Positions 1 to 9,652 of a DNA stretch of 64,000 nucleotides are shown piece by piece. Within the stretch, counting starts at the first letter, position 1; every line of letters begins with the position of its first letter. The notes under the pieces were generated by a model, which saw only the letters and a list, made by a program, of their open reading frames with translations, made no database searches and had not been told where the DNA came from. The position numbers and the translations under genes are program-made. Source of the stretch: Vicinamibacteria bacterium (GTDB taxonomy: Bacteria; Acidobacteriota; Vicinamibacteria; Marinacidobacterales; Marinacidobacteraceae); the NCBI GenBank assembly GCA_963422395.1, contig OY729431.1:1472001-1536000 (forward strand). Reading direction: 5' to 3'.

Positions 1-1045
1 CGGTTTTGCCGTCGAGTACGGTGAGGATGCCGCCGTCGCTGACGAGGATGAGCCGGCCCCGGTGGAAGACGGGTGACGGTACATACCCCTGCCCCTTCCG
101 ATAGCTCCACACGAGCGAACCGTCCTCGACATCGAGGGCGAGGATCCGCTTCTGCGGATAGCCGGTGACGGCGAACACCAGACCGTCCCCGGAAGCCGCC
201 GGGGTCGGGACCGCGTTGCCCGAGAGGCCCTCCGCGCGCCAGCGCTCCCGGCCGGTGGCACTCTCATAGGCAGCGATCGCCCGGACGCCCATGGCCACCA
301 CCAGCGAGGTTCCGTCGCTGGTCTCGACGATCGCCGGGGTGGCCCAGCCCGCCGGCTGCTCCCGTTCTCGCCGCCAGGCGAGCTCCCCGGTGGCGGTATC
401 GAGGGCGGCGAGGAAGGAGCCTTCGCCCCCCTCCACATCGTTTTGCAGCACTACCAGCCCCGCGCTCGCGACGACCACCGGCGAGATGCCCACCCCCATG
501 CCCATCGTCCCGACACCGCCGAAATCCCGGGACCAGAGCGGCTCGCCGTCGAGGCCGAAGGCGTGGAGCCCCTGCGAGCCGAACCAGGCCACCACCCGTT
601 CGCCGTCGCTCGCCGGAGTGGGGTTCGCGTAGGAGCTCACCCGGTGGCGGTTGTCGAAGGGCAGCGCCGAAGGCTGCGCCGTCCTCCGCCAGCGGACTTC
701 GCCGCTTCGCCGGTCGAGGGCGAGCAGCACCGCTTCGAGCCGCCGATCGGCACCGAGGCTGTCGGGGTGGAGGAATTCCTCTTCCCCCATGAAGTGGATC
801 ACCGCGCGGGCGCCGGGGACGGTCTCACCGGGGACCGCGGTGGTGAGGAACACCGCGTCGCCGACCACGATCGGCGATGAATTCCCCCGCCCCCCGATCC
901 GCAGCTTCCAGAGGATGTTCTCGTCCTCCTGCCAGCGCAGCGGCCCTGCCGCGTCCACGACCGCCCGCCCGCCGGGGCCGCGCCAGCCGGGCCAATCCTG
1001 CGCCGCGAGCGAGAGGGCGGCCGCGGCCAAGAGGGCGAACTTCAC
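1..1045 (-). CDS. PQQ/BamB-like beta-propeller repeat protein (3' end runs off window)
   Basis: Not in ORF track. Manual translation from GTG at 1045 (GTGA overlap with upstream stop) gives a signal peptide, then AQDWPGWRGPGG, NILWKL, NSSPIV, NPTP, YVPSP motifs. Confidence 0.8.
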   Translation of the reverse strand, partial: MKFALLAAAALSLAAQDWPGWRGPGGRAVVDAAGPLRWQEDENILWKLRIGGRGNSSPIVVGDAVFLTTAVPGETVPGARAVIHFMGEEEFLHPDSLGADRRLEAVLLALDRRSGEVRWRRTAQPSALPFDNRHRVSSYANPTPASDGERVVAWFGSQGLHAFGLDGEPLWSRDFGGVGTMGMGVGISPVVVASAGLVVLQNDVEGGEGSFLAALDTATGELAWRREREQPAGWATPAIVETSDGTSLVVAMGVRAIAAYESATGRERWRAEGLSGNAVPTPAASGDGLVFAVTGYPQKRILALDVEDGSLVWSYRKGQGYVPSPVFHRGRLILVSDGGILTVLDGKT

Positions 1046-2427
1046 TGCGGGGCCTCGCGGAAGGCATAGAGGTGGTCCACGCCGCGCAGGAAGATGGTCC
1101 CTCCGGCCACCGCGGGAGAGGCCCAGAGCGCCTCGGGGATCGAGCTCTCGGCGACGATCTCGAACTCGCGCCCGGCGCGGAAGACCGTCAAGTCGCCTTC
1201 GAGGCTGCCGATGAGGATGTTCCCCTCGTAGCCGATCGGCGAAGCGTGGTAGCGCCCCGGGTTCGACGGCCGCCCCTGGAAGAGAAGGGTGCCGCTCTCC
1301 GGATCGAGCGCGGTGACCACTCCGCCGTCCGACAGGAAGAAGAGGAGGCCGCGGTAGAGGAGCGCCGACGGCAGGTAGCCGGTGCCGCGCTCGTAGGACC
1401 ACCGGGTCTCCGGCGGAGCTGGGCCCGTGAGGGAAAGGGCGCGCATTTCCTTCCTGGGATATCCCGTCGAGACGAAGACGAGCCGCTCGCCGCCGAGGGG
1501 AGCGTGGACCGGAGTGTGGATCACATTCGAGTCGAAACCGGCAGTTCGCCAGATTTCGGCGCCGCTCGCCGGGTCGTAGCCGGCGATCCGGTCGTAGCTC
1601 GGGACCACCAGCTGCGTTTCGCCGCCGACCGGGAGCAGCGCGGGGGTCCCCCAGCTCTTCCGCACCCGGCGCGGAGTGGTCCAGACCACCACGCCCGAGC
1701 GCCGATCCACCGCGAAGATCCGGGACCTCTCCCCGCCGTCGTCGTCGCAGACGAGGAGGAGGAGCTCCTCGTGGAGCACCGGGGAGATGCCGTGGCCGAG
1801 CCCCCAGACTCCGAAATCGCCCAAGTCCGTCTCCCAAACGGGTTCTCCGTCCAGGGTGAAGGCGAAGAGCCCTTCCGAGCCGAAGAAGAAATAGACCCGT
1901 TCCCCGTCGGTCAGTGCGGTGGGGGAGGCGTAGGTGTTGCCGCGGTGGCGGTCGTCGTACACCGGGCCTTCGCGCACCGCCCGCCGCCATAGTTCCTCGC
2001 CGTTCGCGGCGTCGTAGGCGAGTGCGAGCAGGACATGCGACCGCTCGCCGTCCAGGCTCCCCGGGTGCAGGTACATTTCGCCGTCCCGGATGTGCTCCGG
2101 CGGCGCCTTCCCGGGAAGCACCTCGCCGGCTACTGCAGCGGAGACGAACAGGCGCCTGCCCCAGACGATGGGCGACGAGTGGCCTTCGCCCGGAGTCACC
2201 GTCTTCCAGATCCCGGTCGCTTCCGGATCGAAACGGATCGGGAGCCCGGTCTCGTTCGAGACGCCGTCGGCAGTCGGCCCCCGCCAGTTCGGCCAGTGCG
2301 CCGGCGGCTCACCGCTATTCGGCCCTCGCTCCGGGCTCGGCAAGGCCGGTCCAGCGGGAGACGGACCCACTCCTGAGAGGAAGAACAACGGGAGGAGCAG
2401 CGGGACCGCCGCAGGAGGGACGCTCAC
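1042..2427 (-). CDS. PQQ/BamB-like beta-propeller repeat protein
   Basis: C-terminal part of track ORF 1042..3366; WPNWRGP, GHSSPIVWG, YASPTA, SWGTP, WASPAV repeats; GTG at 2427 overlaps upstream stop (GTGA); signal-like N-terminus. Confidence 0.85.
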   Translation of the reverse strand: MSVPPAAVPLLLPLFFLSGVGPSPAGPALPSPERGPNSGEPPAHWPNWRGPTADGVSNETGLPIRFDPEATGIWKTVTPGEGHSSPIVWGRRLFVSAAVAGEVLPGKAPPEHIRDGEMYLHPGSLDGERSHVLLALAYDAANGEELWRRAVREGPVYDDRHRGNTYASPTALTDGERVYFFFGSEGLFAFTLDGEPVWETDLGDFGVWGLGHGISPVLHEELLLLVCDDDGGERSRIFAVDRRSGVVVWTTPRRVRKSWGTPALLPVGGETQLVVPSYDRIAGYDPASGAEIWRTAGFDSNVIHTPVHAPLGGERLVFVSTGYPRKEMRALSLTGPAPPETRWSYERGTGYLPSALLYRGLLFFLSDGGVVTALDPESGTLLFQGRPSNPGRYHASPIGYEGNILIGSLEGDLTVFRAGREFEIVAESSIPEALWASPAVAGGTIFLRGVDHLYAFREAPQ

Positions 2428-3713
2428 GGAGGCTTCTCCCGCGTATTGTGCATCTCTCCGGCGGCTTCCGAGGTGCGTTTCAGGAACCTTGTGCCGCCGA
2501 TCTCGCCCCCGTCTTCGAAGTCGCCGATCAGTCGGGGGTGGTGCTGCAACGCCTTCGCCTCCGCCCGCCTGCGGGCCTCGGAGAGTTTCGAGCGCGGGTG
2601 GATCAACTGGCGAACCCGCCGCCGGATCCGATGAGCGAGCAGTTTCGAACGCTCTCCGAAGGACAAGCCCGCCCCATCCGGCACGGCAAAGGTATTCGCG
2701 AGCCCGGCACGCCAGAACCTGCCGTTGGCGTGTTCCCGCAGAGTTTCGCGGGGAGTGTCCAGCCGGGCGATGGATTCCGCCAGCCATCGCGAAGTCGCTG
2801 CGCCAGGGATGTGGGTGGTGGCTGGGGCGTCCGGCCAGAACCAGATCAGCAGCTGCCGCGCCGCTGCCAGCTCCTCGGGGTGGCGGGTGAAGGCACGCTC
2901 GATCACCGACCAGTCGACTCGCCCTCCGGCAGCCGTGACTAGCAGGTAGATGTGATAGCTGTAGCGCAGATCGAGCGACCGATCGCGGTAATGGTGATGG
3001 TCGAGCAGGTCGTGGGCGATGGCCTGCGCGACTTTTCCCGACGAGGTCAGCTGCCAGGCGCGCAGCGGCGGGTCGAATTCCGGCGCGGCGACGGGTTCGC
3101 GCGCATCCGCAGCCAGCATCCGCAGCGGATCGCCGCCGTTCAGCAAGCGTCGGTGCAACTCGACGGTCACCCCGCCCGGTCCCACGAGAGCCGGAGCGTG
3201 CTTCTCCTCGCGTGCTTCCGGCCACGGGGAGAGATCCCCGGGTTCGATCTCCTGATAGCCGCGCTCGCGGAGTGCCCGCCAAGCAGAGCCTACTGTCTCG
3301 GGCGGAAGCAGCACATCCAGGTCCATCATGAAGCGCCGGCCGCGCAGATCGGCCGGCTCGCTCCATAGTTCTGCCGAGCCCTTGAACAGCAGCGGCTCGA
3401 TGCTGCGCTCGTTCAAGAACGCGACCAGGCGCATCAACTCATCTTCGAGCGCAGCATGACGCCGCTCGCTCCCTTCGATGAGCCAGCGGCAGTAGCCGCC
3501 GAGAGAATCGTCGCTGTCGGCGATGCGCAGCGGATGCCGCACCACTGCGTGGGCGAGCGCCGGCCCTAGCCAGAAGCGGTTGGCCAGCTCGAAGAGATCC
3601 GGCCAGTCCACCTGGGCCGCCGGCGGGAATTCGTCCCAGCGAGTCGGGTGCTCCAGAGTTGCGAGGGCGCGGCACAGATTCCGGATGAGAGCCTCTGTTC
3701 CCGATTCCTGCAT
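2424..3713 (-). CDS. nucleotidyltransferase family protein (NTP_transf_5-like)
   Basis: LLFKG...RRFMMDLDVLL and VELH motifs typical of this family; TGATG overlap with the upstream frame. Confidence 0.8.
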   Translation of the reverse strand: MQESGTEALIRNLCRALATLEHPTRWDEFPPAAQVDWPDLFELANRFWLGPALAHAVVRHPLRIADSDDSLGGYCRWLIEGSERRHAALEDELMRLVAFLNERSIEPLLFKGSAELWSEPADLRGRRFMMDLDVLLPPETVGSAWRALRERGYQEIEPGDLSPWPEAREEKHAPALVGPGGVTVELHRRLLNGGDPLRMLAADAREPVAAPEFDPPLRAWQLTSSGKVAQAIAHDLLDHHHYRDRSLDLRYSYHIYLLVTAAGGRVDWSVIERAFTRHPEELAAARQLLIWFWPDAPATTHIPGAATSRWLAESIARLDTPRETLREHANGRFWRAGLANTFAVPDGAGLSFGERSKLLAHRIRRRVRQLIHPRSKLSEARRRAEAKALQHHPRLIGDFEDGGEIGGTRFLKRTSEAAGEMHNTREKPP

Positions 3714-5048
3714 CAGCCGTACCAGGCCACCGCCTGTTCCTCCATCCAGCGGACGACGCGATCGCAGGCGCCGTATCGAACCTCGAAGGCCGGCAGCGCC
3801 GCGAGGTGATCGACGAAGGCGATGGCCTCTTCGGCGTGTCCGATCCGCCGCTGGCGATAGCCGTTGCGGGTCATTGCGAGCACCGCTTCAGGCAGCGAGA
3901 GCGGCCGGACGGCCAGCTCCTCTCCCGGTACGAATCGAGGCGCGACCAGCACTGTGGGAATCGGGGGCTCCTCGGCGGGTGGTCCCTGGGCAGGGTCTTC
4001 CGTCCGCACCGCCGAAGGGAACTGATGGCGCCCATCTCTCTCTCTCTCTCTCTCTCTCTCTGGCAGAGGGCGGCCAGTAGAGGACGAACCGACGCCCGTC
4101 CGGGCGCTCCAGCACTGGAGGCAGGCCGTCGGGGTCCATGCCAGCGGCCTTCCAGGCGCCCTCCTTGATGGCGAGGGGCACTTCGGTGGGCAGCGGTCGG
4201 AGTTCCTCGTCGAGGACGATGGCATCGTCTGACGAACAGATGCCGCCCCGGTCGGTCAACACTTTCGAAAGGGTCGTCTTGCCGGCGCCGGTCGGAGCGG
4301 GTAGCAGCCACTGCACGCCGCGGAAGCACACAGAAGCGCCGTGACACCAGAATCGATACGGGAGTGCTTCGCAAACCGCCTCGAACGCCGCGGCGACGAC
4401 GGCTCCGGCGAGCTGCCCCAGGTTCGCGCAGGGGACGAGCCGCCCTTCCGGCAGGACGACCTGATAGGCATCGGACCCGAGGGAGTCCACGGCTAGCTCC
4501 ATCACTGGGCCTGGCGGCCTGTCCCCTCCTCGATCACTACGCCGGTGGACGGAGTCCACCGGCCGTCGAGCTGCGATCGCCTGGTCCGCCACTCGCCGCA
4601 GCAGGTGCGCCGCCCGGGCCGCCGCTCGCTCTGGGCCGCGGAAATTCACCCGCACCGCCGCCGGCGGAAACACGAACGACTCTGCGCGTTCCGAGAGCCG
4701 AGGGGTGCGAGGGGGGCGCTCGCGCCGTCTGTCTTGCCCCTCAGAGATCCGCCCCGGCCGGAACGGCAGGTCGGGCAGCGGGAGTGAGGGGTCGGCCAGC
4801 GTCGCCGCGTTGGCACGCGCGATTTCCAGGCTGGTGCCGCCGATGTCCGGCTCCAGTTCGTCGGCCGCCGGTTCCGGCCGTTCGGCTGCGAGTGCCTGCA
4901 AGAAGCGCCAGGAGGTCCAGTCCAGCCACACCAGCGACTGACGCTTGCGGCAGTAGACGAGCGGGCTGGAGACGAGCGGACCGGCCGCCGAACTGCCGAG
5001 TGGCGGCTCTAGAACCTCCCAGGCAACGAGGTGCGGAAGGCCGGACAG
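3713..5048 (-). pseudogene. HPr-kinase-related P-loop protein with N-terminal PqqD/RRE-like segment; frameshifted at (TC)13 tract (possibly phase-OFF)
   Basis: Frame of ORF 3888..4931 has HGASV...LLPAPTGAGKTT...SDD (HPrK-like). The plausible C-terminus (LVAPRFVPG..PLSLPEAVL..LPAFEVRYG) lies in the frame of ORF 3713..4225. The switch coincides with the repeat at 4035-4061. Start uncertain (GTG 4931 or CTG 5048). Confidence 0.7.
4035..4061. repeat. perfect dinucleotide simple sequence repeat (TC)13T
   Basis: Directly visible: ...ccca tctctctctctctctctctctctctct ggc...; only such tract noticed in the window. Confidence 0.97.
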
Positions 5049-5224
5049 CTCTTTCCTGGCAGCCTGCGCCGCAGGAAAGAGTGAGGTCGAGGTGGGGAGG
5101 ATGGGTGCGTCGGGAGGATGGACGAGGTTCTATCGGGGTTTCGCGGTAACCGCCGCAGGAGAGATGCGCACGTCAGGTCCCCGCGTATTGTCCGCTGGAG
5201 TGATAGCAGTGACTTTGGGCGAAG

Positions 5225-5243
5225 TGCCGTGTGACTTCATCCA
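5225..5243 (-). repeat. remnant of MITE end sequence
   Basis: TGCCGTGTGACTTCATCCA matches 45506-45524 (TGCCGTGTGACTTTGTCCA) at 17/19 positions. Confidence 0.5.
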
Positions 5244-5259
5244 TGCATAGAAGGCTGTT

Positions 5260-5604
5260 TCAAGCCAAGAACCGAAAGGCGGCGAAGAGGAGCCCGGCGA
5301 TGGCCAGGGTGGCGAGCATGCCCCGGCGCTCGCTGGCGCTGATCGCTGCGGAGAGTTTAGCATAGCTCGTCTCGATGGCGGCTTCGAGGTGGACGCGGAG
5401 CGTGTCGAGGTCGGACTTCGCCGCGGCTTCGAGGCGCTCGAGGCGGGCGGTGAGCGCGGTTTCGAGGCGGTCGAGGTCGGACTTCGAGGCGCCGGATCCA
5501 TCGGCGAGCGCGAGCTCGGTGACGATGGCGCGGGCAATGGCAGGATCGGCCCCGGCGGCGATGATGCGTTCGGCGGCGGCTGCGGTATCGAGGGAGTAGG
5601 GCAT
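5260..5604 (-). CDS. DUF1640/CCDC90-like small coiled-coil protein with C-terminal TM helix
   Basis: ATG 5604 after AGGAG; LDT..A.ERI.AAG...A.AIV N-terminus, repeated KSDLD motif, hydrophobic C-terminus. Confidence 0.7.
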   Translation of the reverse strand: MPYSLDTAAAAERIIAAGADPAIARAIVTELALADGSGASKSDLDRLETALTARLERLEAAAKSDLDTLRVHLEAAIETSYAKLSAAISASERRGMLATLAIAGLLFAAFRFLA

Positions 5605-5792
5605 GGTGAGCTCCTGTGGTCGGGCGATCGGGAATTCGCAATCTACAGCATCGACCACCACCACCCCATCGGGCACCTCCACCTCGTCGAGGTTGTGTGC
5701 GGCCCTTCCCCTGAAGATAGCCAGCTCTGCTCGCGGCGACGATGGCTTCGCGGCTTGGGTGCGTGCCGCCGCCGATAGAATCCCGGCCCGCC

Positions 5793-8099
5793 GTGCCTAC
5801 TGGACCCCCTTTCGGATTCTTTGCCGGCCCTTCCACCAGCCGGGCTGACTCTCGGATCCGGCCGGCGATCCCTCCCGCCCTGCCGGTGGTTTTCACCGCT
5901 TGTCTCTTCGCCGCCGGCGCTTTTTCAGCCGACTGGCCCGAGGGTCGAGGACCGACGCGCGACGGCCGCTCACCGGAGACCGGTCTTCCCGAATCCTGGT
6001 CGCCCGACGGAGAGAACCTCCTGTTCCGGGCGCCTTACGGCGGCCGCTCCACCCCGGTGATCCTCGGCGGCCGCCTGTTCCTCCAGACCGCGGTCGGCGA
6101 GGGCGAGACCCGCCAGGCCCGGCTGCTCGCCCTCGACGCCGGCACCGGCGAACTGCTCTGGGAAGAGCGCCGCAACATCTACCACTCCGATGCGCCCCCC
6201 CGGCGGGTGGGATGGGCTTCTCCGGCCGCCGACGCCGAGACCGGGACGGTGTTCTGGTTCACCGTCGGCGGCGGGCTTTCCGCCTTGGCTGCCGAAAGCG
6301 GAAACCTCCGCTGGGAGCGCTCGCTGCCCGAAGAACTCGGCCTGGTGACCACCCACGGGGGGCGGACCGCTTCGCCGCTGATCCTCGGGGACCTGGTGAT
6401 CCTTTCCGGTCTCACTTCCTCCTGGGGGGCGCAGGCGCGCGGCAGCCAGCGCTTCTTCGCCTTCGACAAGCGGACCGGCGAGATCGTCTGGCTCTCGACG
6501 CCCGGCGGCCGTCCCTTCGACACGACCTACTCCCCCGCCCTGGTCCGCAAGGTCGCCGGTCAGCGGCTTCTGCTGGTGGGCGGCGGCGACGGGGCGTTCC
6601 ACGCGATCCAGCCGACCACCGGAGCCTCGGTCTGGCGGTTCCCGATGAGCAAGCGCGGAGTGAACAGCGGGGCGGTGGTCTTCGGAAACCTCGCGGTGGT
6701 GAGCCACGGCGAGGAGAACCTCGAGTCCTCGCAGATGGGCCTGCTGGCGGCGCTCGACGCCCGCTCCTCCGGCGAGATCGCGCGAAGCGAGGCGCTCTGG
6801 GAAGCGCCGGGCTTCATGGGGGGCTATTCCTCCGGCGTCGGTGATGGAGAAATCCTCTACCAGCTCGACAACAGCGCGAACCTGACCGCTTTCTCCGCGA
6901 ACGACGGCGCCGAGCTCTGGTCGGAAAACCTCGGCACCATCCAGCGCGCCTCTCCGGTGCTCGCCGACGGCAAGCTCTATGTGGGGACCGCGAACGGCCG
7001 GTTCTTCATCCTGCGGCCGGGCCGCGAAGGCGTCCTCGTGCTCGACGACGACCGGCTCGGCACCGAAAGCGCCCTGGAGGAAATCCTGGCTTCGGCGGCG
7101 ATCAGCGACGGTGTCGTGTACCTGGTCTCTACCGGAGCGCTCTACGCGATCGGCGAGCGCCGCCCGACCCTCGAAGCTCCGCCCGAAGCTCCGATTGACG
7201 CCTCCTCCCCTGAGATCTCCCCCGAAGCTCCTTCTCCGCCGGTGCGTATCCCGGTGCGCCTGTTGGTCTCCCCCACCGAGGAGATCCTGGCGCCCGGGGA
7301 CGAGGTCCCGCTCACGGTGCGGGCCTTCGACGAGCTCGGCGATCCGGTGGACCCCCCGGCGGAACTTCGCTGGTCGGTGGCAGGATTCGATGCGGAGGTC
7401 CGGAACGGGACGCTTTCGGTCGGGGCCGATGCTCCGGAAGGAGCCGGAACGGTGATCGCCGCTGCGGGCGCCATCGAGGGAGCGGCGCGCTTCCGCGTCG
7501 TTCCTCCCCTGCCCTGGCACTGGGATTTCGACGGCGAAGACGCCAGGGTCCCGCCGCAATGGGTGAACGCCGCCGGCAAGTACGAGACGCGCACCGCCTT
7601 CGCCGGCGAGCGAGAGGAGCGCGTTCTGGTCAAGAAGGCCGACAACCCGTTCCTGCGCCGCGCGCGGGTGTACATGGGCGCTCCGACGCTTTCCGGATAC
7701 ACGGTTTCCGCCGATGTGCTGGCGAAGGAGCGGCGCCGCCAGCTGGGGAACGCCGGGCTCGTCGCCCAGCGCTATCAGTTCGTCCTGATGGGTTCCCACC
7801 AGCGCCTCGAGATCCACTCCTGGCAGGCGACGCCCGGCCGGACCGTCCAGATGCCGTTCGCTTGGGAACCGGACACTTGGTACTCCATGAAGTTCCAGGT
7901 CGTCGAGGACGAGGCCGGAACCGTCGCCCGCGGCAAGGTCTGGCAGCGGAGCGAGCCGGAGCCGGAGGCCTGGACCCTCGACTGGCGCGAGCCGCTGCCG
8001 CATCGCGAGGGGACCCCCGGCATCTTCGCCGACGCGGTGACCGCCGAAGTCTTCTTCGACAACATCCGCGTGGAACCGGGGAACCCGCCCGGAAACTAG
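5793..8099 (+). CDS. PQQ-like beta-propeller protein with C-terminal Ig-like and beta-sandwich domains
   Basis: ADWPEGRGP, STPVI, WASPA, TYSP, RASPVLADGKLYVG; start GTG 5793 (downstream of TAGAAT 5776-5781) or ATG 5742. Confidence 0.85.
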   Translation: MPTGPPFGFFAGPSTSRADSRIRPAIPPALPVVFTACLFAAGAFSADWPEGRGPTRDGRSPETGLPESWSPDGENLLFRAPYGGRSTPVILGGRLFLQTAVGEGETRQARLLALDAGTGELLWEERRNIYHSDAPPRRVGWASPAADAETGTVFWFTVGGGLSALAAESGNLRWERSLPEELGLVTTHGGRTASPLILGDLVILSGLTSSWGAQARGSQRFFAFDKRTGEIVWLSTPGGRPFDTTYSPALVRKVAGQRLLLVGGGDGAFHAIQPTTGASVWRFPMSKRGVNSGAVVFGNLAVVSHGEENLESSQMGLLAALDARSSGEIARSEALWEAPGFMGGYSSGVGDGEILYQLDNSANLTAFSANDGAELWSENLGTIQRASPVLADGKLYVGTANGRFFILRPGREGVLVLDDDRLGTESALEEILASAAISDGVVYLVSTGALYAIGERRPTLEAPPEAPIDASSPEISPEAPSPPVRIPVRLLVSPTEEILAPGDEVPLTVRAFDELGDPVDPPAELRWSVAGFDAEVRNGTLSVGADAPEGAGTVIAAAGAIEGAARFRVVPPLPWHWDFDGEDARVPPQWVNAAGKYETRTAFAGEREERVLVKKADNPFLRRARVYMGAPTLSGYTVSADVLAKERRRQLGNAGLVAQRYQFVLMGSHQRLEIHSWQATPGRTVQMPFAWEPDTWYSMKFQVVEDEAGTVARGKVWQRSEPEPEAWTLDWREPLPHREGTPGIFADAVTAEVFFDNIRVEPGNPPGN

Positions 8100-8116
8100 G
8101 AGGGGAATTCCGCCCC

Positions 8117-9652
8117 ATGCCCTCACGAAAAGGTCTGCCTCCGAGAAGCGTCTCCCGACAGGGCCTCTCCCGGCGAAGCCGGTTCCGACCGAACAGCGGC
8201 CCGGCCCCCGGACTCGCCGCTTTGGCGGCGGCAACCGCTTTGGCGGCGGCCTCGGGATCGGCTTCGGCCCAGGATTGGCCGATGTGGGGCGGCAGTCCCG
8301 ATCGCAACATGGTTTCGGAGAGCCCCGCCCGGCTGCCTTCCGAATGGGATGTGGACAGTGGCCGGAACATCCGCTGGTCAGCCCCGCTCGGCTCGCAGAC
8401 CTACGGCAACCCGGTGGTCGCCGGGGGCCGAGTCTTCATCGGCACCAACAACGAAGCGCTCTACGACGAGGAGATCGTCGGCGACAAGGGCATCCTGTTG
8501 GCCTTCGACGCCGCGACCGGCGAGTTCCTCTGGCAGATGGTCTCGGACAAGCTCGCCTCGGGGCGGGTGAACGACTGGCCCTACCAGGGGGTCTGTTCCT
8601 CGCCCCTCGTCGAGGGGGACCGCCTCTACTATGTGACGAACCGGGGCGAGGTGCTGGCCCTCGACGCCGCGGGGATGGCCGACGGCAACGACGGGCTCTT
8701 CACCGGCGAAGTGCTCGGGTCGCCGAACGACGGTGACATCGTCTGGAAGTTCGACATGATGGAGGAACTCGGTGCCTTCCCGCACAACATGTCGAATGCC
8801 AGCCCGGTGGCCCTCGGCGATCTCCTCTTCGTCAGCACCTCGAACGGGCACGACGAAACGCACGCCAACATCCCCTCCCCGCGCTCTCCTGCGATCATCG
8901 CGCTGGACAAGCGCACCGGCGAACTCGTCTGGGAGCAGAACCAGGTGGGGGAGAACATCCTCCACGGCCAGTGGTCTTCGGCGGGAGTCGGCGAGGTCGC
9001 GGGCCTGGCCCAGGTGGTGATGGGCGAGGGCGACGGCTTCGTCCGCGGCTATGCCGCGGCGAGCGGGGAAATGCTCTGGGAGTTCGATACGAACCCGGCG
9101 GGTTCCGTCTGGCCGCGCACTCGGAACAATGTGATCTCGACTCCGGTGATCCGCGGCGACCGGCTCTATATCGCGAACGGACAGGACCCCGAACACGGCG
9201 AGGGCATCGGCCACCTCTACGCGATAGACCCGACGCAGCGCGGCGACATCACCGAGACCGGACGGCTCTGGCACTACGACGCCATCCGGCGCTCGATCTC
9301 GACCGCCGCGGTGAAGGACGGCATCCTCTACCTTCCGGATTTCTCCGGCTTCCTCCACGCACTCGACCTCGAAACCGGGGAACCGATCTGGGTCCACGAC
9401 ACCTTCGCCGCCGTCTGGGGGTCGCCGCTGATCGCCGACGGCAAGCTCTACCTCGGCGACGAGGATGGGGATGTGGTGGTCCTCCGACCCGGTCCGACGG
9501 AGGAAGTGATCGCCGAGATGAACATGGGCAGCTCGGTCTATTCGAGCGCCGTCCCCGCGAACGGGGTGCTCTACATCGCCAGCCGGAACCGCCTCTTCGC
9601 CATCGAGGAGCGGGAAGAGGCCGCCTCAGGCGCCGGCGGCGGCAGCCGATAG
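8117..9652 (+). CDS. PQQ-like beta-propeller repeat protein
   Basis: ATG 8117 after AGGAGG; signal peptide, QDWPMWGG, TYGNPVVAGG, CSSPLVEG, WGSPLIADGKLY. Confidence 0.88.
   Translation: MPSRKGLPPRSVSRQGLSRRSRFRPNSGPAPGLAALAAATALAAASGSASAQDWPMWGGSPDRNMVSESPARLPSEWDVDSGRNIRWSAPLGSQTYGNPVVAGGRVFIGTNNEALYDEEIVGDKGILLAFDAATGEFLWQMVSDKLASGRVNDWPYQGVCSSPLVEGDRLYYVTNRGEVLALDAAGMADGNDGLFTGEVLGSPNDGDIVWKFDMMEELGAFPHNMSNASPVALGDLLFVSTSNGHDETHANIPSPRSPAIIALDKRTGELVWEQNQVGENILHGQWSSAGVGEVAGLAQVVMGEGDGFVRGYAAASGEMLWEFDTNPAGSVWPRTRNNVISTPVIRGDRLYIANGQDPEHGEGIGHLYAIDPTQRGDITETGRLWHYDAIRRSISTAAVKDGILYLPDFSGFLHALDLETGEPIWVHDTFAAVWGSPLIADGKLYLGDEDGDVVVLRPGPTEEVIAEMNMGSSVYSSAVPANGVLYIASRNRLFAIEEREEAASGAGGGSR

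Follow-up and report, generated by a model that had tools for sequence, protein, structure and literature searches.

The window is a stretch of 64,000 nt from the closed contig of a 2.908 Mb bacterial genome with a GC content of 68.4% (G000). At one end of the window, on the minus strand, the gene for a P-loop kinase is split by a simple sequence repeat (SSR) and is followed by genes for a nucleotidyltransferase and two beta-propeller proteins (Table 1). The repeat is a perfect (TC)13T tract of 27 nt at 4035-4061, as the preliminary description of this DNA had stated. In particular, TRF reports a period of 2, 13.5 copies and 100% matches, and a pattern search finds the tract with 0 mismatches; 0 of 100 dinucleotide-preserving shuffles contain a match when up to 3 mismatches are allowed. 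Across the genome, there are 35 dinucleotide runs of at least 5 units, of which 32 have 5 units, one has 6, one has 14, and one, the tract described here, has 13. Frame A, the reading frame upstream of the tract, reads it as RERERERER. The tract has the sequence characteristics expected of a contingency locus: it is a perfect repeat, its unit is not divisible by 3, and it lies within a coding sequence.

Table 1. Features of the split kinase gene and of its neighbours; positions are those of the window.
Feature	Position	Strand	Description
Shine-Dalgarno-like AGGAAAGAG	5049..5057	-	abuts the CTG at 5048; the aligned spot in the ortholog P0003 is GGAAGGG ahead of an ATG
Kinase N-terminal part, frame A	4062..5048	-	329 codons; putative PqqD/RRE-like region, then P-loop kinase core
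Simple sequence repeat	4035..4061	-	(TC)13T on the + strand, A(GA)13 on the coding strand
Out-of-frame tail, frame A, (TC)13 allele	3888..4034	-	WAPSVPFGG...AALAA; stop 3888-3890
Kinase C-terminal part, frame B	3713..4034	-	DGRHQ...VAPRFVPGEEL...RYGACDRVVRWMEEQAVAWYG; stop 3713-3715
NTP_transf_5 nucleotidyltransferase gene	2424..3713	-	ATG overlaps the frame B stop (TGATG); PF14907 match
Secreted PQQ_2/BamB-like beta-propeller gene 1	1042..2427	-	GTG overlaps the nucleotidyltransferase stop (GTGA, ~2424-2427)
Beta-propeller gene 2	1..1045	-	GTG overlaps the beta-propeller 1 stop (GTGA, ~1042-1045); continues past the window start

Upstream of the tract, frame A carries the motifs of a P-loop kinase core (CHGAS, GAGKTT, SSDD, IKEGAW and LERPDGRR). 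Downstream of it, the C-terminal part of the kinase lies in frame B, which is open from the tract to its stop, and the next ORF begins with an ATG that overlaps this stop (GGCTGATGCAG). The preliminary description had recognised this arrangement, including the HGAS, GAGKTT and SDD motifs upstream of the tract, the change of frame, the TGATG overlap at 3711-3715 and the termination of the present allele at 3888, and each of these readings was confirmed. At 68% GC, an open frame of 116 codons such as frame B is weak evidence by itself. By hand arithmetic, frame B is offset by +1 from frame A; therefore, alleles with n = 2 mod 3 units (8, 11, 14 or 17) fuse the two frames. A (TC)14 allele would encode 445 aa when translated from the CTG at 5048, and the earlier calculation that (TC)14 or (TC)11 restores a single ORF of about 445 aa holds from that codon. 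This CTG (5046-5048) is the putative start of the kinase, being the sole, non-canonical candidate for the homologous N-terminus: frame A has no ATG, GTG or TTG from its in-frame stop at 5130-5132 to a GTG at 4931. Further, a scan of positions 1-6000 for sigma-70 promoters and terminators found nothing that exceeds shuffled sequences.

Both halves come from a single family of PqqD-like/HprK-related kinases, since orthologs that are single ORFs span both frames. In these orthologs, P0003 (394 aa) and P0004 (417 aa), the alignment with frame A extends to ...RFVLYWPP and that with frame B begins at ...VAPRF; the frame break sits at the tract, in a linker whose length and sequence differ between orthologs. 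For comparison with a related locus (L009), blastp of chosen ORFs was used, as tblastx was too noisy in GC-rich DNA. Frame A is 56% identical to the L009 kinase over 320 aa (E = 4e-101), and for frame B the identity is 69% over the 83 aa that align with residues 306-388 of that protein (E = 6e-38). The latter alignment, together with a match to TIGR04352 (HprK-related kinase A), bears out the kinase C-terminal homology of the 3713 frame, on which the earlier reading depended. In particular, the TIGR04352 profile (280 positions) matches frame B at 203-278 (E = 1.8e-4, 20.7 bits) and P0003 at 96-278 (30.4 bits), with scores of 24.5 bits for P0004 and 122.8 bits for a further relative, P0005, against a cut-off of 200 bits. 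Judging from these scores, the kinase is a distant relative of HprK-related kinase A and not a member of the equivalog. The clade is small, with 5 proteins at E <= 1e-30 among 1.84 billion representatives, and exact look-up of P0003, P0004 and P0010, a 79-aa ORF that is all the deposited genome calls in the kinase C-terminal region, returned a singleton cluster for each. P0010 is not independent evidence, because it derives from the window's own genome.

In an alignment of 50 family sequences, the invariant and near-invariant residues are H221, P235, G239, G241, K242, T244, L245, L249, G253, D259, K280, R299 and P342, and the two frames of the window retain all of them; H221, G241 and K242 do not vary at all, and D259 is shared by at least 90% of the 50 relatives. 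The motifs and conserved residues of frame A are those of the HPrK/PEPCK-like P-loop kinase superfamily, with a Walker A motif (GxxGxGKT/S) that follows a conserved His and precedes an Asp. The AlphaFold model of P0004 has a mean pLDDT of 88.9 and a pTM of 0.88, with scores of 60 and 53 in the linker (residues 311-330) and block means of 89-98 from residue 331; its C-terminal part, from residue 337, consists of four strands and three helices. The best fold matches of the model in the PDB are PEPCK (E = 1.7e-3, TMq 0.34) and segments of HPrK/P, with weak scores. At the N-terminus of the model, three strands (17-22, 38-43 and 48-52) are followed by three helices (54-65, 70-73 and 79-93). The Pfam PqqD family (PF05402) has no match in the window frame, P0003 or P0004, and it matches P0005 at the aligned position with an E-value of 4.7e-9.

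The nucleotidyltransferase gene is present as a single copy in the genome. Its product matches PF14907 with 62.4 bits (E = 6e-17), above the gathering threshold of 31.2 bits, and is 63% identical to its L009 ortholog (E = 2e-152). A search for related loci with the family alignment returned one locus, L009, which shares the kinase and the nucleotidyltransferase only; the beta-propellers are not conserved there, and the neighbouring genes encode a PAD_porph deiminase and an acyltransferase. As judged from gene content at the two loci, the conserved module is the kinase with the NTP_transf_5 nucleotidyltransferase, the beta-propellers excluded. The preliminary description had proposed a four-gene operon, whose TGATG and GTGA overlaps do exist, but the four genes do not form a conserved unit. 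It had also suggested that lost translational coupling could reach the whole operon, a proposal that is now weakened. Both beta-propellers, which begin with signal-peptide-like sequences, carry Shine-Dalgarno-like sequences of their own (GGAGA and GAGG, 8 nt ahead of the GTG starts); therefore, a loss of coupling would most plausibly affect the nucleotidyltransferase only.

The length of the tract is polymorphic between samples. The comparison masks positions 4026-4070, and unit numbers were therefore inferred from the lengths and ends of contigs. A contig from another study (X5, record 16) covers 3961-4682, lacks 8 nt and otherwise shows 0 differences, a length that implies 9 units. From either side, the contigs of sample X1 reach 28 nt into the masked stretch and end there, and those of sample X3 reach 36 nt into it; these are the positions at which branches of a k=31 graph are expected once 19 nt and 27 nt of the tract have been passed. 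The X3 contigs imply an allele with more than 13 units. The shorter X5 tract and the different depths of the X1 and X3 breaks bear out the variation in repeat length that the preliminary description had anticipated. PCR or sequencing stutter could be partly responsible where contigs break at a repeat of 27 nt. Alleles of 13 and 9 units are OFF, as neither length joins the two frames, and no in-frame allele is found among the lengths inferred from the sample contigs. A scan of metagenomes for the two tract flanks separated by a gap of 9-39 nt gave 0 matches, and a protein-based scan of contigs from metagenomes yielded 401 pattern matches, of which 0 were confirmed; neither scan added an allele. 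A sample of about 1/100 of a Hi-C run (X8) contained 0 reads over 3000-6000.

Genes split by SSRs are recurrent in this genome and in its family. The genome has nine very long tracts, and at least five of them split genes, comprising four defence genes and the kinase. Besides the (TC)13T tract, they include (AG)14 at C1:2579287 and poly-G/C tracts at C1:635512, 1015888, 2451234, 681483, 1461736, 1462611 and 189637. (AG)14 is the genome's sole further long dinucleotide SSR; it splits a type IIG REase-MTase gene into parts that are out of frame with each other, with PADLOC profile positions 314-1023 before the tract and 1099-1352 after it. Similarly, G19 splits the BREX gene pglX (profile positions 3-567 and 599-1121), C32 splits sspB (2-82 and 84-279), and G16 splits a type III mod gene (76-126 and 138-621). 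Tracts of (AG)10 or longer occur in 7 of 24 same-family genomes, compared with 2 of 16 genomes from other families of the order, and poly-G tracts of at least 16 nt occur in 16 of 24 compared with 1 of 16. In relatives, hmaB and a type III mod gene are split by tracts, and another tract sits within sspC; at an orthologous hmaB locus, tract length is 24 nt in one species and 79 nt in a second. The longest SSRs reach 38 nt for poly-G and 79 nt for (AG)n. A loss of mismatch repair as the source of the repeats was rejected: both MutS and MutL are present in the genome, and the repeats are therefore not a by-product of such a loss.

The (TC)13T tract is probably a phase-variable ON/OFF switch driven by slippage. 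This reading is favoured because the frames are split, the tract differs in length between samples, and similar repeats occur in phage-defence genes of the same genome, a context that favours a contingency locus. According to the proposed mechanism, a hypermutable dinucleotide repeat would occupy a permissive surface linker of the PqqD-like/HprK-related kinase gene, and replication slippage would alter its number of units. Alleles in the n = 2 mod 3 series would read on into the C-terminal ~110 residues and produce a kinase of ~445 aa that contains an (RE)n insert. Any other length, 13 units included, would end in a short out-of-frame tail, 160-175 nt ahead of the next gene. The OFF kinase would then miss four strands and three helices of the fold, and the coupled nucleotidyltransferase, which lacks a strong ribosome-binding site of its own, would probably be poorly translated. 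The reversibility of the switch, its ON alleles, its polar effect and its selective value are the parts of this reading that we infer.

The main rival, unlikely but deserving serious weight, is that the locus is a decaying pseudogene, in which a horizontally acquired kinase gene is being lost, the repeat expands or drifts neutrally, and the frameshift is the inactivating lesion. Both inferred tract lengths are out of frame; however, the gene has no lesion besides the tract, and the near-invariant residues of the family are all retained. The deposited genome calls just the 79-aa fragment, in line with decay. Against decay, the identity of frame B to its ortholog (69%) exceeds that of the N-terminal part (56%), the TGATG coupling to the nucleotidyltransferase is intact, and the repeat is perfect across its 13 units. 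The lack of an ATG, GTG or TTG start for the homologous N-terminus and the finding of no kinase ortholog in the same-family genomes searched (0 of 24) do fit a dispensable, decaying acquisition; among same-order genomes, 5 of 16 have weak P-loop matches and nothing better. However, independent decay is hard to reconcile with the at least four other genes of this genome, all of classical phase-variable classes, that are split likewise.

A second alternative, translational recoding, is very improbable. On this view, a -2 or +1 slip of ribosomes along the AGA-GAG run would let the 13-unit allele yield some full-length kinase, with the tract tuning its level and not switching it. The required shift is indeed +1 (equal to -2), and after a -2 slip on a dinucleotide repeat, pairing is perfectly restored. 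Frame A also reads five AGA codons, the rarest Arg codon of the genome (1.9% of Arg in long ORFs with GC3 > 0.8), and runs of rare AGA/AGG codons promote frameshifting in E. coli. However, tRNA-Arg(UCU) is present in the genome, a 9-unit allele would require a different shift, and the other split genes use poly-G/C tracts, where DNA slippage is the established mechanism. An assembly or sequencing artefact, in which the gene is truly in frame and its repeat was miscounted, can hardly account for the locus either: dinucleotide repeats are error-prone in long-read consensus and PCR-based libraries, and a one-unit error suffices for a frameshift, but the independent X5 contig is off by 8 nt, not by one unit, and is likewise out of frame, the X1 and X3 contigs break at different depths in the tract, which points to real heterogeneity and not one true length, and several other long tracts in the closed contig give the same split-gene pattern.

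If the switch reading is true, it would provide a natural ON/OFF genetic handle on poorly understood pairs of HprK-related kinases and NTP_transf_5 nucleotidyltransferases, of which the module described here is an uncharacterised, RiPP-style example. It would also make this bacterial family a system in which to study how defence genes are gated stochastically in bacteria other than pathogens. For host-adapted pathogens, phase variation by SSRs is textbook material; to our knowledge, it is much less documented in environmental, high-GC bacteria that are proficient in mismatch repair. As to function, it is conceivable, though doubtful, that the kinase/nucleotidyltransferase pair is a phage-interaction module, placed under the switch within a lineage-wide 'phasome' of SSR-gated, costly defence genes. 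This suggestion draws on guilt by shared regulation, as all the SSR-split genes of recognisable function are defence genes (pglX, sspB, type III mod and type IIG in this genome; hmaB, type III mod and sspC in relatives). It could take two forms: the pair may constitute an undescribed defence system, or it may phosphorylate and glycosylate a surface or secreted peptide that phages use. PADLOC-DB 2.0 assigned 0 families to P0004, the nucleotidyltransferase and beta-propeller 1.

The same pair of enzymes is found in lasso-peptide tailoring, with an HPr-kinase homolog (paeninodin) and a nucleotidyltransferase (pseudomycoidin). In contrast to lasso-peptide clusters, the neighbours here are beta-propellers in the window, and the PAD_porph deiminase and acyltransferase at L009; the lasso protease domain PF13471 has 0 matches in the whole genome, and a lasso peptide cluster was rejected on this basis. 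The HPr-rel-A system, which comprises a TIGR04352 HprK-related kinase A, a PqqD-family protein and a nucleotidyltransferase, resembles the locus, where a P-loop, HprK-like kinase core with a putative PqqD-like recognition region is encoded next to an NTP_transf_5 gene. However, the window frame and its close orthologs score 20.7-30.4 bits against a cut-off of 200, and the PqqD-like part is here fused to the kinase.

With regard to regulation, the G-tract in pglX of the Streptomyces coelicolor Pgl/BREX system is an established phase-variation switch (PMC4365076). The likeness to such SSR contingency loci, among them phase-variable type III mod genes, lies in a perfect intragenic repeat, whose unit length is not divisible by 3 and whose changes in length shift the frame; the window genome also has tracts in pglX, type III mod, type IIG and sspB themselves. 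The differences are that the gated gene here encodes a PqqD-like/HprK-related kinase coupled to a nucleotidyltransferase, that the host belongs to an environmental, high-GC lineage and is not a host-adapted pathogen, and that the ON/OFF switching here is a proposed one. The preliminary description knew of no phase-variable kinase/nucleotidyltransferase module, and a search of titles and abstracts agrees with it: among the matches listed, none ties phase variation to PqqD, HprK-related kinases or NTP_transf_5. Type III and type I phasevarions, for their part, are reportedly the subject of surveys (PMC5909438, PMC7383803). Dinucleotide repeats of the CT/GA type act as a frameshift switch in the Helicobacter pylori outer-membrane protein genes oipA, hopZ and sabA, and they are intragenic, as is the tract described here. 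In H. pylori, however, the tract is situated in the signal-peptide region of surface adhesins, whereas here it lies two thirds of the way along a cytoplasmic enzyme, in an internal linker at the surface.

The kinase gene on the minus strand (5048-3713) is broken by a perfect dinucleotide repeat. By TRF, the tract at 4035-4061 has a period of 2, 13.5 copies and 100% matches, reading A(GA)13 on the coding strand, and none of 100 dinucleotide-preserving shuffles of the window gave a comparable tract, even with 3 mismatches allowed. The genome, one contig of 2,908,270 bases and 68.4% GC, has 35 dinucleotide runs that reach 5 units or more: 32 with exactly 5 and one each with 6, 13 (the kinase tract) and 14 units. 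On the 5′ side of the tract, the N-terminal frame (frame A) encodes CHGAS, GAGKTT and SSDD; across the tract it yields RERERERER, and its stop lies at 3888. From the tract on, the C-terminal frame (frame B) has no stop until 3713-3715, and this stop codon shares bases with the ATG of the following gene. Because frame B is offset by +1 relative to frame A, adding 1 unit or removing 2 units fuses both frames into a 445-aa ORF from CTG 5048. The preliminary description was correct in its account of the perfect (TC)13T tract, the kinase motifs, the frame split, the stop/ATG overlap and the frame-restoring unit changes.

Both frames belong to one gene. In a word-indexed search, the 329 N-terminal residues matched three relatives, and the single-ORF orthologs P0003 (394 aa, 57% identity) and P0004 (417 aa, 54% identity) align to frame A through ...DGRRFVLYWPP and, starting at ...VAPRF, to the rest of frame B. 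By blastp, the ortholog at locus L009 matches frame A with 56% identity over 320 aa (E 4e-101) and frame B with 69% over 83 aa (ortholog residues 306-388, E 6e-38). Further, positions 203-278 of the 280 in NCBIfam TIGR04352 (HprK-related kinase A) match frame B (E 1.8e-4), and P0003 covers positions 96-278 of this profile; the supposition that both halves come from a single HPrK-related family is thus borne out. The tract occupies the position of the ortholog linker between the aligned blocks, where length and sequence vary among orthologs. The AlphaFold model of P0004, built from a 50-sequence alignment, has a mean pLDDT of 88.9 and a pTM of 0.88; pLDDT is low at residues 311-330 (60 and 53), and block means are 89-98 from residue 331 on. 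Since the C-terminal part, from residue 337, is modeled as four strands and three helices, an allele stopping after the tract would lose an integral part of the fold. Every residue conserved without exception, or nearly so, in 50 relatives is kept in the window's two frames.

Contigs from three sequencing runs were compared with the locus with 4026-4070 masked, so that tract lengths are inferred. A 742-nt contig from X5, a run of a different study, spans 3961-4682 and is 8 letters shorter with 0 substitutions, which fits 9 units. Flanking contigs stop, on both sides, 28 nt into the masked stretch in run X1 (depth ~150-180) and 36 nt into it in run X3 (depth ~45-58); with k = 31, these ends fall exactly where graph branches are expected after 19 nt (9 units) and 27 nt (13 units), implying that X1 carries 9 units plus longer alleles and X3 carries 13 units plus longer alleles. 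The contig breaks may be due in part to stutter, which cannot explain the 8-nt difference in X5. Lengths of 9 and 13 units are both out of frame (OFF), and no in-frame allele was seen among the lengths from this masked comparison. Raw-read run X8 yielded 0 reads at the locus, and two metagenome scans returned no further copies of it.

Frame A contains no ATG, GTG or TTG from the in-frame stop at 5130-5132 to GTG 4931, and its homology to P0004 starts before 5040, ahead of that GTG. CTG 5048, directly preceded by AGGAAAGAG, is a possible start codon; in the alignment it corresponds to the P0003 ATG, ahead of which stands GGAAGGG. A lost start codon would equally be a sign of decay.

The neighboring gene (see table) is the genome's sole NTP_transf_5 gene. 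L009, which lies on a closed contig (2.56 Mb) from a Bryobacterales MAG, also has the kinase followed by an orthologous nucleotidyltransferase (63% identity, E 2e-152), whose GTG start overlaps the kinase end by 13 nt. Beyond the pair, L009 carries a PAD_porph gene of the peptidyl-arginine/agmatine deiminase family (L009 10496-12505) and an acyltransferase gene, whereas the window has two secreted PQQ_2 beta-propellers with GTGA overlaps; the conserved unit is thus kinase plus nucleotidyltransferase. In OFF alleles, translation would end 160-175 nt ahead of the nucleotidyltransferase ATG, which lacks a strong ribosome binding site, and nucleotidyltransferase translation would probably fall as well. 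Of the four-gene operon switch proposed earlier, the overlaps linking the genes hold; whether the whole operon would be affected is doubtful, as each propeller gene has a Shine-Dalgarno-like sequence of its own and neither is a conserved partner.

Many PQQ_2 propeller genes populate the wider neighborhood, together with genes for a prolyl oligopeptidase (S9) and for an AAA_15/AAA_21 ATPase that is weakly similar to several defence ATPases. Window positions 1-9652 and G000:C1:1464120-1471706 (L022) hold at least six densely clustered PQQ_2/BamB-like propeller genes around the pair, including an ankyrin-repeat fusion.

Among HprK-related kinases, the kinase family forms a distant branch. Searched exhaustively with a profile, 1.84 billion representatives yielded 928 proteins at E <=1e-3, 28 at <=1e-10 and 5 at <=1e-30; a fold search gave only weak matches, to PEPCK and HPrK/P, and in the relative P0005 a Pfam PqqD domain occupies the corresponding N-terminal position of the alignment. 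A kinase ortholog was found in none of 24 same-family genomes, and same-order genomes gave weak P-loop matches alone, in 5 of 16, one being G033 (unpublished).

Other long repeats of the genome (G000, contig C1) and the gene next to the kinase gene
Feature	Coordinates	Context	Profile match
NTP_transf_5 nucleotidyltransferase	2424-3713	Gene next to kinase	PF14907, 62.4 bits
(AG)14	G000:C1:2579287-2579314 (L001 4288-4315), outside window	Only other long dinucleotide repeat in genome	
G19	G000:C1:635512-635530 (L013 3513-3531)	Splits BREX pglX, out of frame	3-567 / 599-1121
C32	G000:C1:2451234-2451265 (L012 3235-3266)	Splits sspB (DUF4007), out of frame	2-82 / 84-279
G16	G000:C1:1015888-1015903 (L014 2889-2904)	Splits type III mod methylase gene, out of frame	76-126 / 138-621
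G32 (32-nt poly-C run)	G000:C1:681483-681514 (L011 3484-3515)	In frame inside ORF of ~660 aa	
G38 and G17	G000:C1:1461736-1461773, 1462611-1462627 (L010 2737-2774, 3612-3628)	~10-14 kb before window	

In a type IIG restriction enzyme-methyltransferase gene, the (AG)14 tract breaks the frame: positions 314-1023 of PDLC03620, from the anti-phage defence database PADLOC, are matched before the tract and 1099-1352 after it; +1 unit or -2 units would restore the frame, and the gene adjoins a PLD + SNF2 helicase gene. Moreover, seven poly-G/C tracts of 16-38 nt occur in the genome (those tabulated and a G18). The G32 tract would encode ~10 prolines in its ORF, which has an EVIQNSWDA motif in its N-terminal part, presumably GHKL-ATPase-like, and only a weak PADLOC match (PDC-M33A, E 1.8e-5). 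The sequences flanking G38 and G17 are nearly identical. Read on the minus strand, both tracts come after a Shine-Dalgarno-like AAGGAGGA and a possible GTG start and open into two paralogous ORFs of ~135 aa with no Pfam or PADLOC match; these appear to be paired small phase-variable genes encoding a poly-Pro N-terminus. Short AT-rich motifs lie immediately 5′ of long poly-G tracts in this 68% GC genome (AATTTTTTC, ACTTTTTC, GAATTC, GAGAATTC, TTATTTC and GAAAAAT), and could mark tract origin or a sequence requirement for tract stability. MutS and MutL are both encoded.

Overall, this bacterial family is much richer in long (AG)n and poly-G tracts than the rest of its order: (AG)10 or longer occurs in 7/24 same-family genomes versus 2/16 from other families, and poly-G of at least 16 in 16/24 versus 1/16. 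Five tract loci of relatives were inspected. For four of them, 7 protein parts were compared with PADLOC: hmaB is interrupted by the tract in G003, as is a type III mod gene in G002, the G005 tract falls inside sspC, and locus L016 had no PADLOC match. The flanks of the fifth locus, L020 (G008), are the same as those of the hmaB methylase locus L019 (G003), and the (TC)n tract measures 24 nt in L019 (1500-1523) and 79 nt in L020 (1501-1579), the two genomes being congeners.

The most economical reading, and a fairly probable one, is that long SSRs serve this lineage as stochastic switches, chiefly for defence genes, with the kinase gene as one more gated locus. The main rival, a decaying pseudogene with a drifting repeat, is unlikely but draws on three observations: the gene has no canonical start codon, its distribution is sporadic and two OFF alleles are present. 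An assembly artefact is a minor and very improbable rival, and so remote a chance also attaches to ribosomal -2/+1 slippage on the AGA-rich run (AGA makes up 1.9% of Arg codons).

SSR phase variation is itself a known mechanism. In the literature found, the HprK-related kinase gene class is not described as phase-variable, and the preliminary description's statement that no phase-variable kinase/nucleotidyltransferase module of this kind was known agrees with that literature. The many very long SSRs that the lineage carries in defence genes merit a separate look, the bacterium being environmental and repair-proficient.

Two known systems offer comparison. According to PMC8498205, HPr-kinase homologs and nucleotidyltransferases carry out Ser phosphorylation and then hexose addition on lasso peptides, and a PAD_porph-type enzyme class is also named among the tailoring enzymes; the window's genome contains no lasso protease domain, so the identification of the module as a lasso cluster was rejected. 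The other comparison concerns the tracts: a G tract in pglX is an established phase-variation switch (PMC4365076), and the pglX of the window's genome is likewise split by a G tract.
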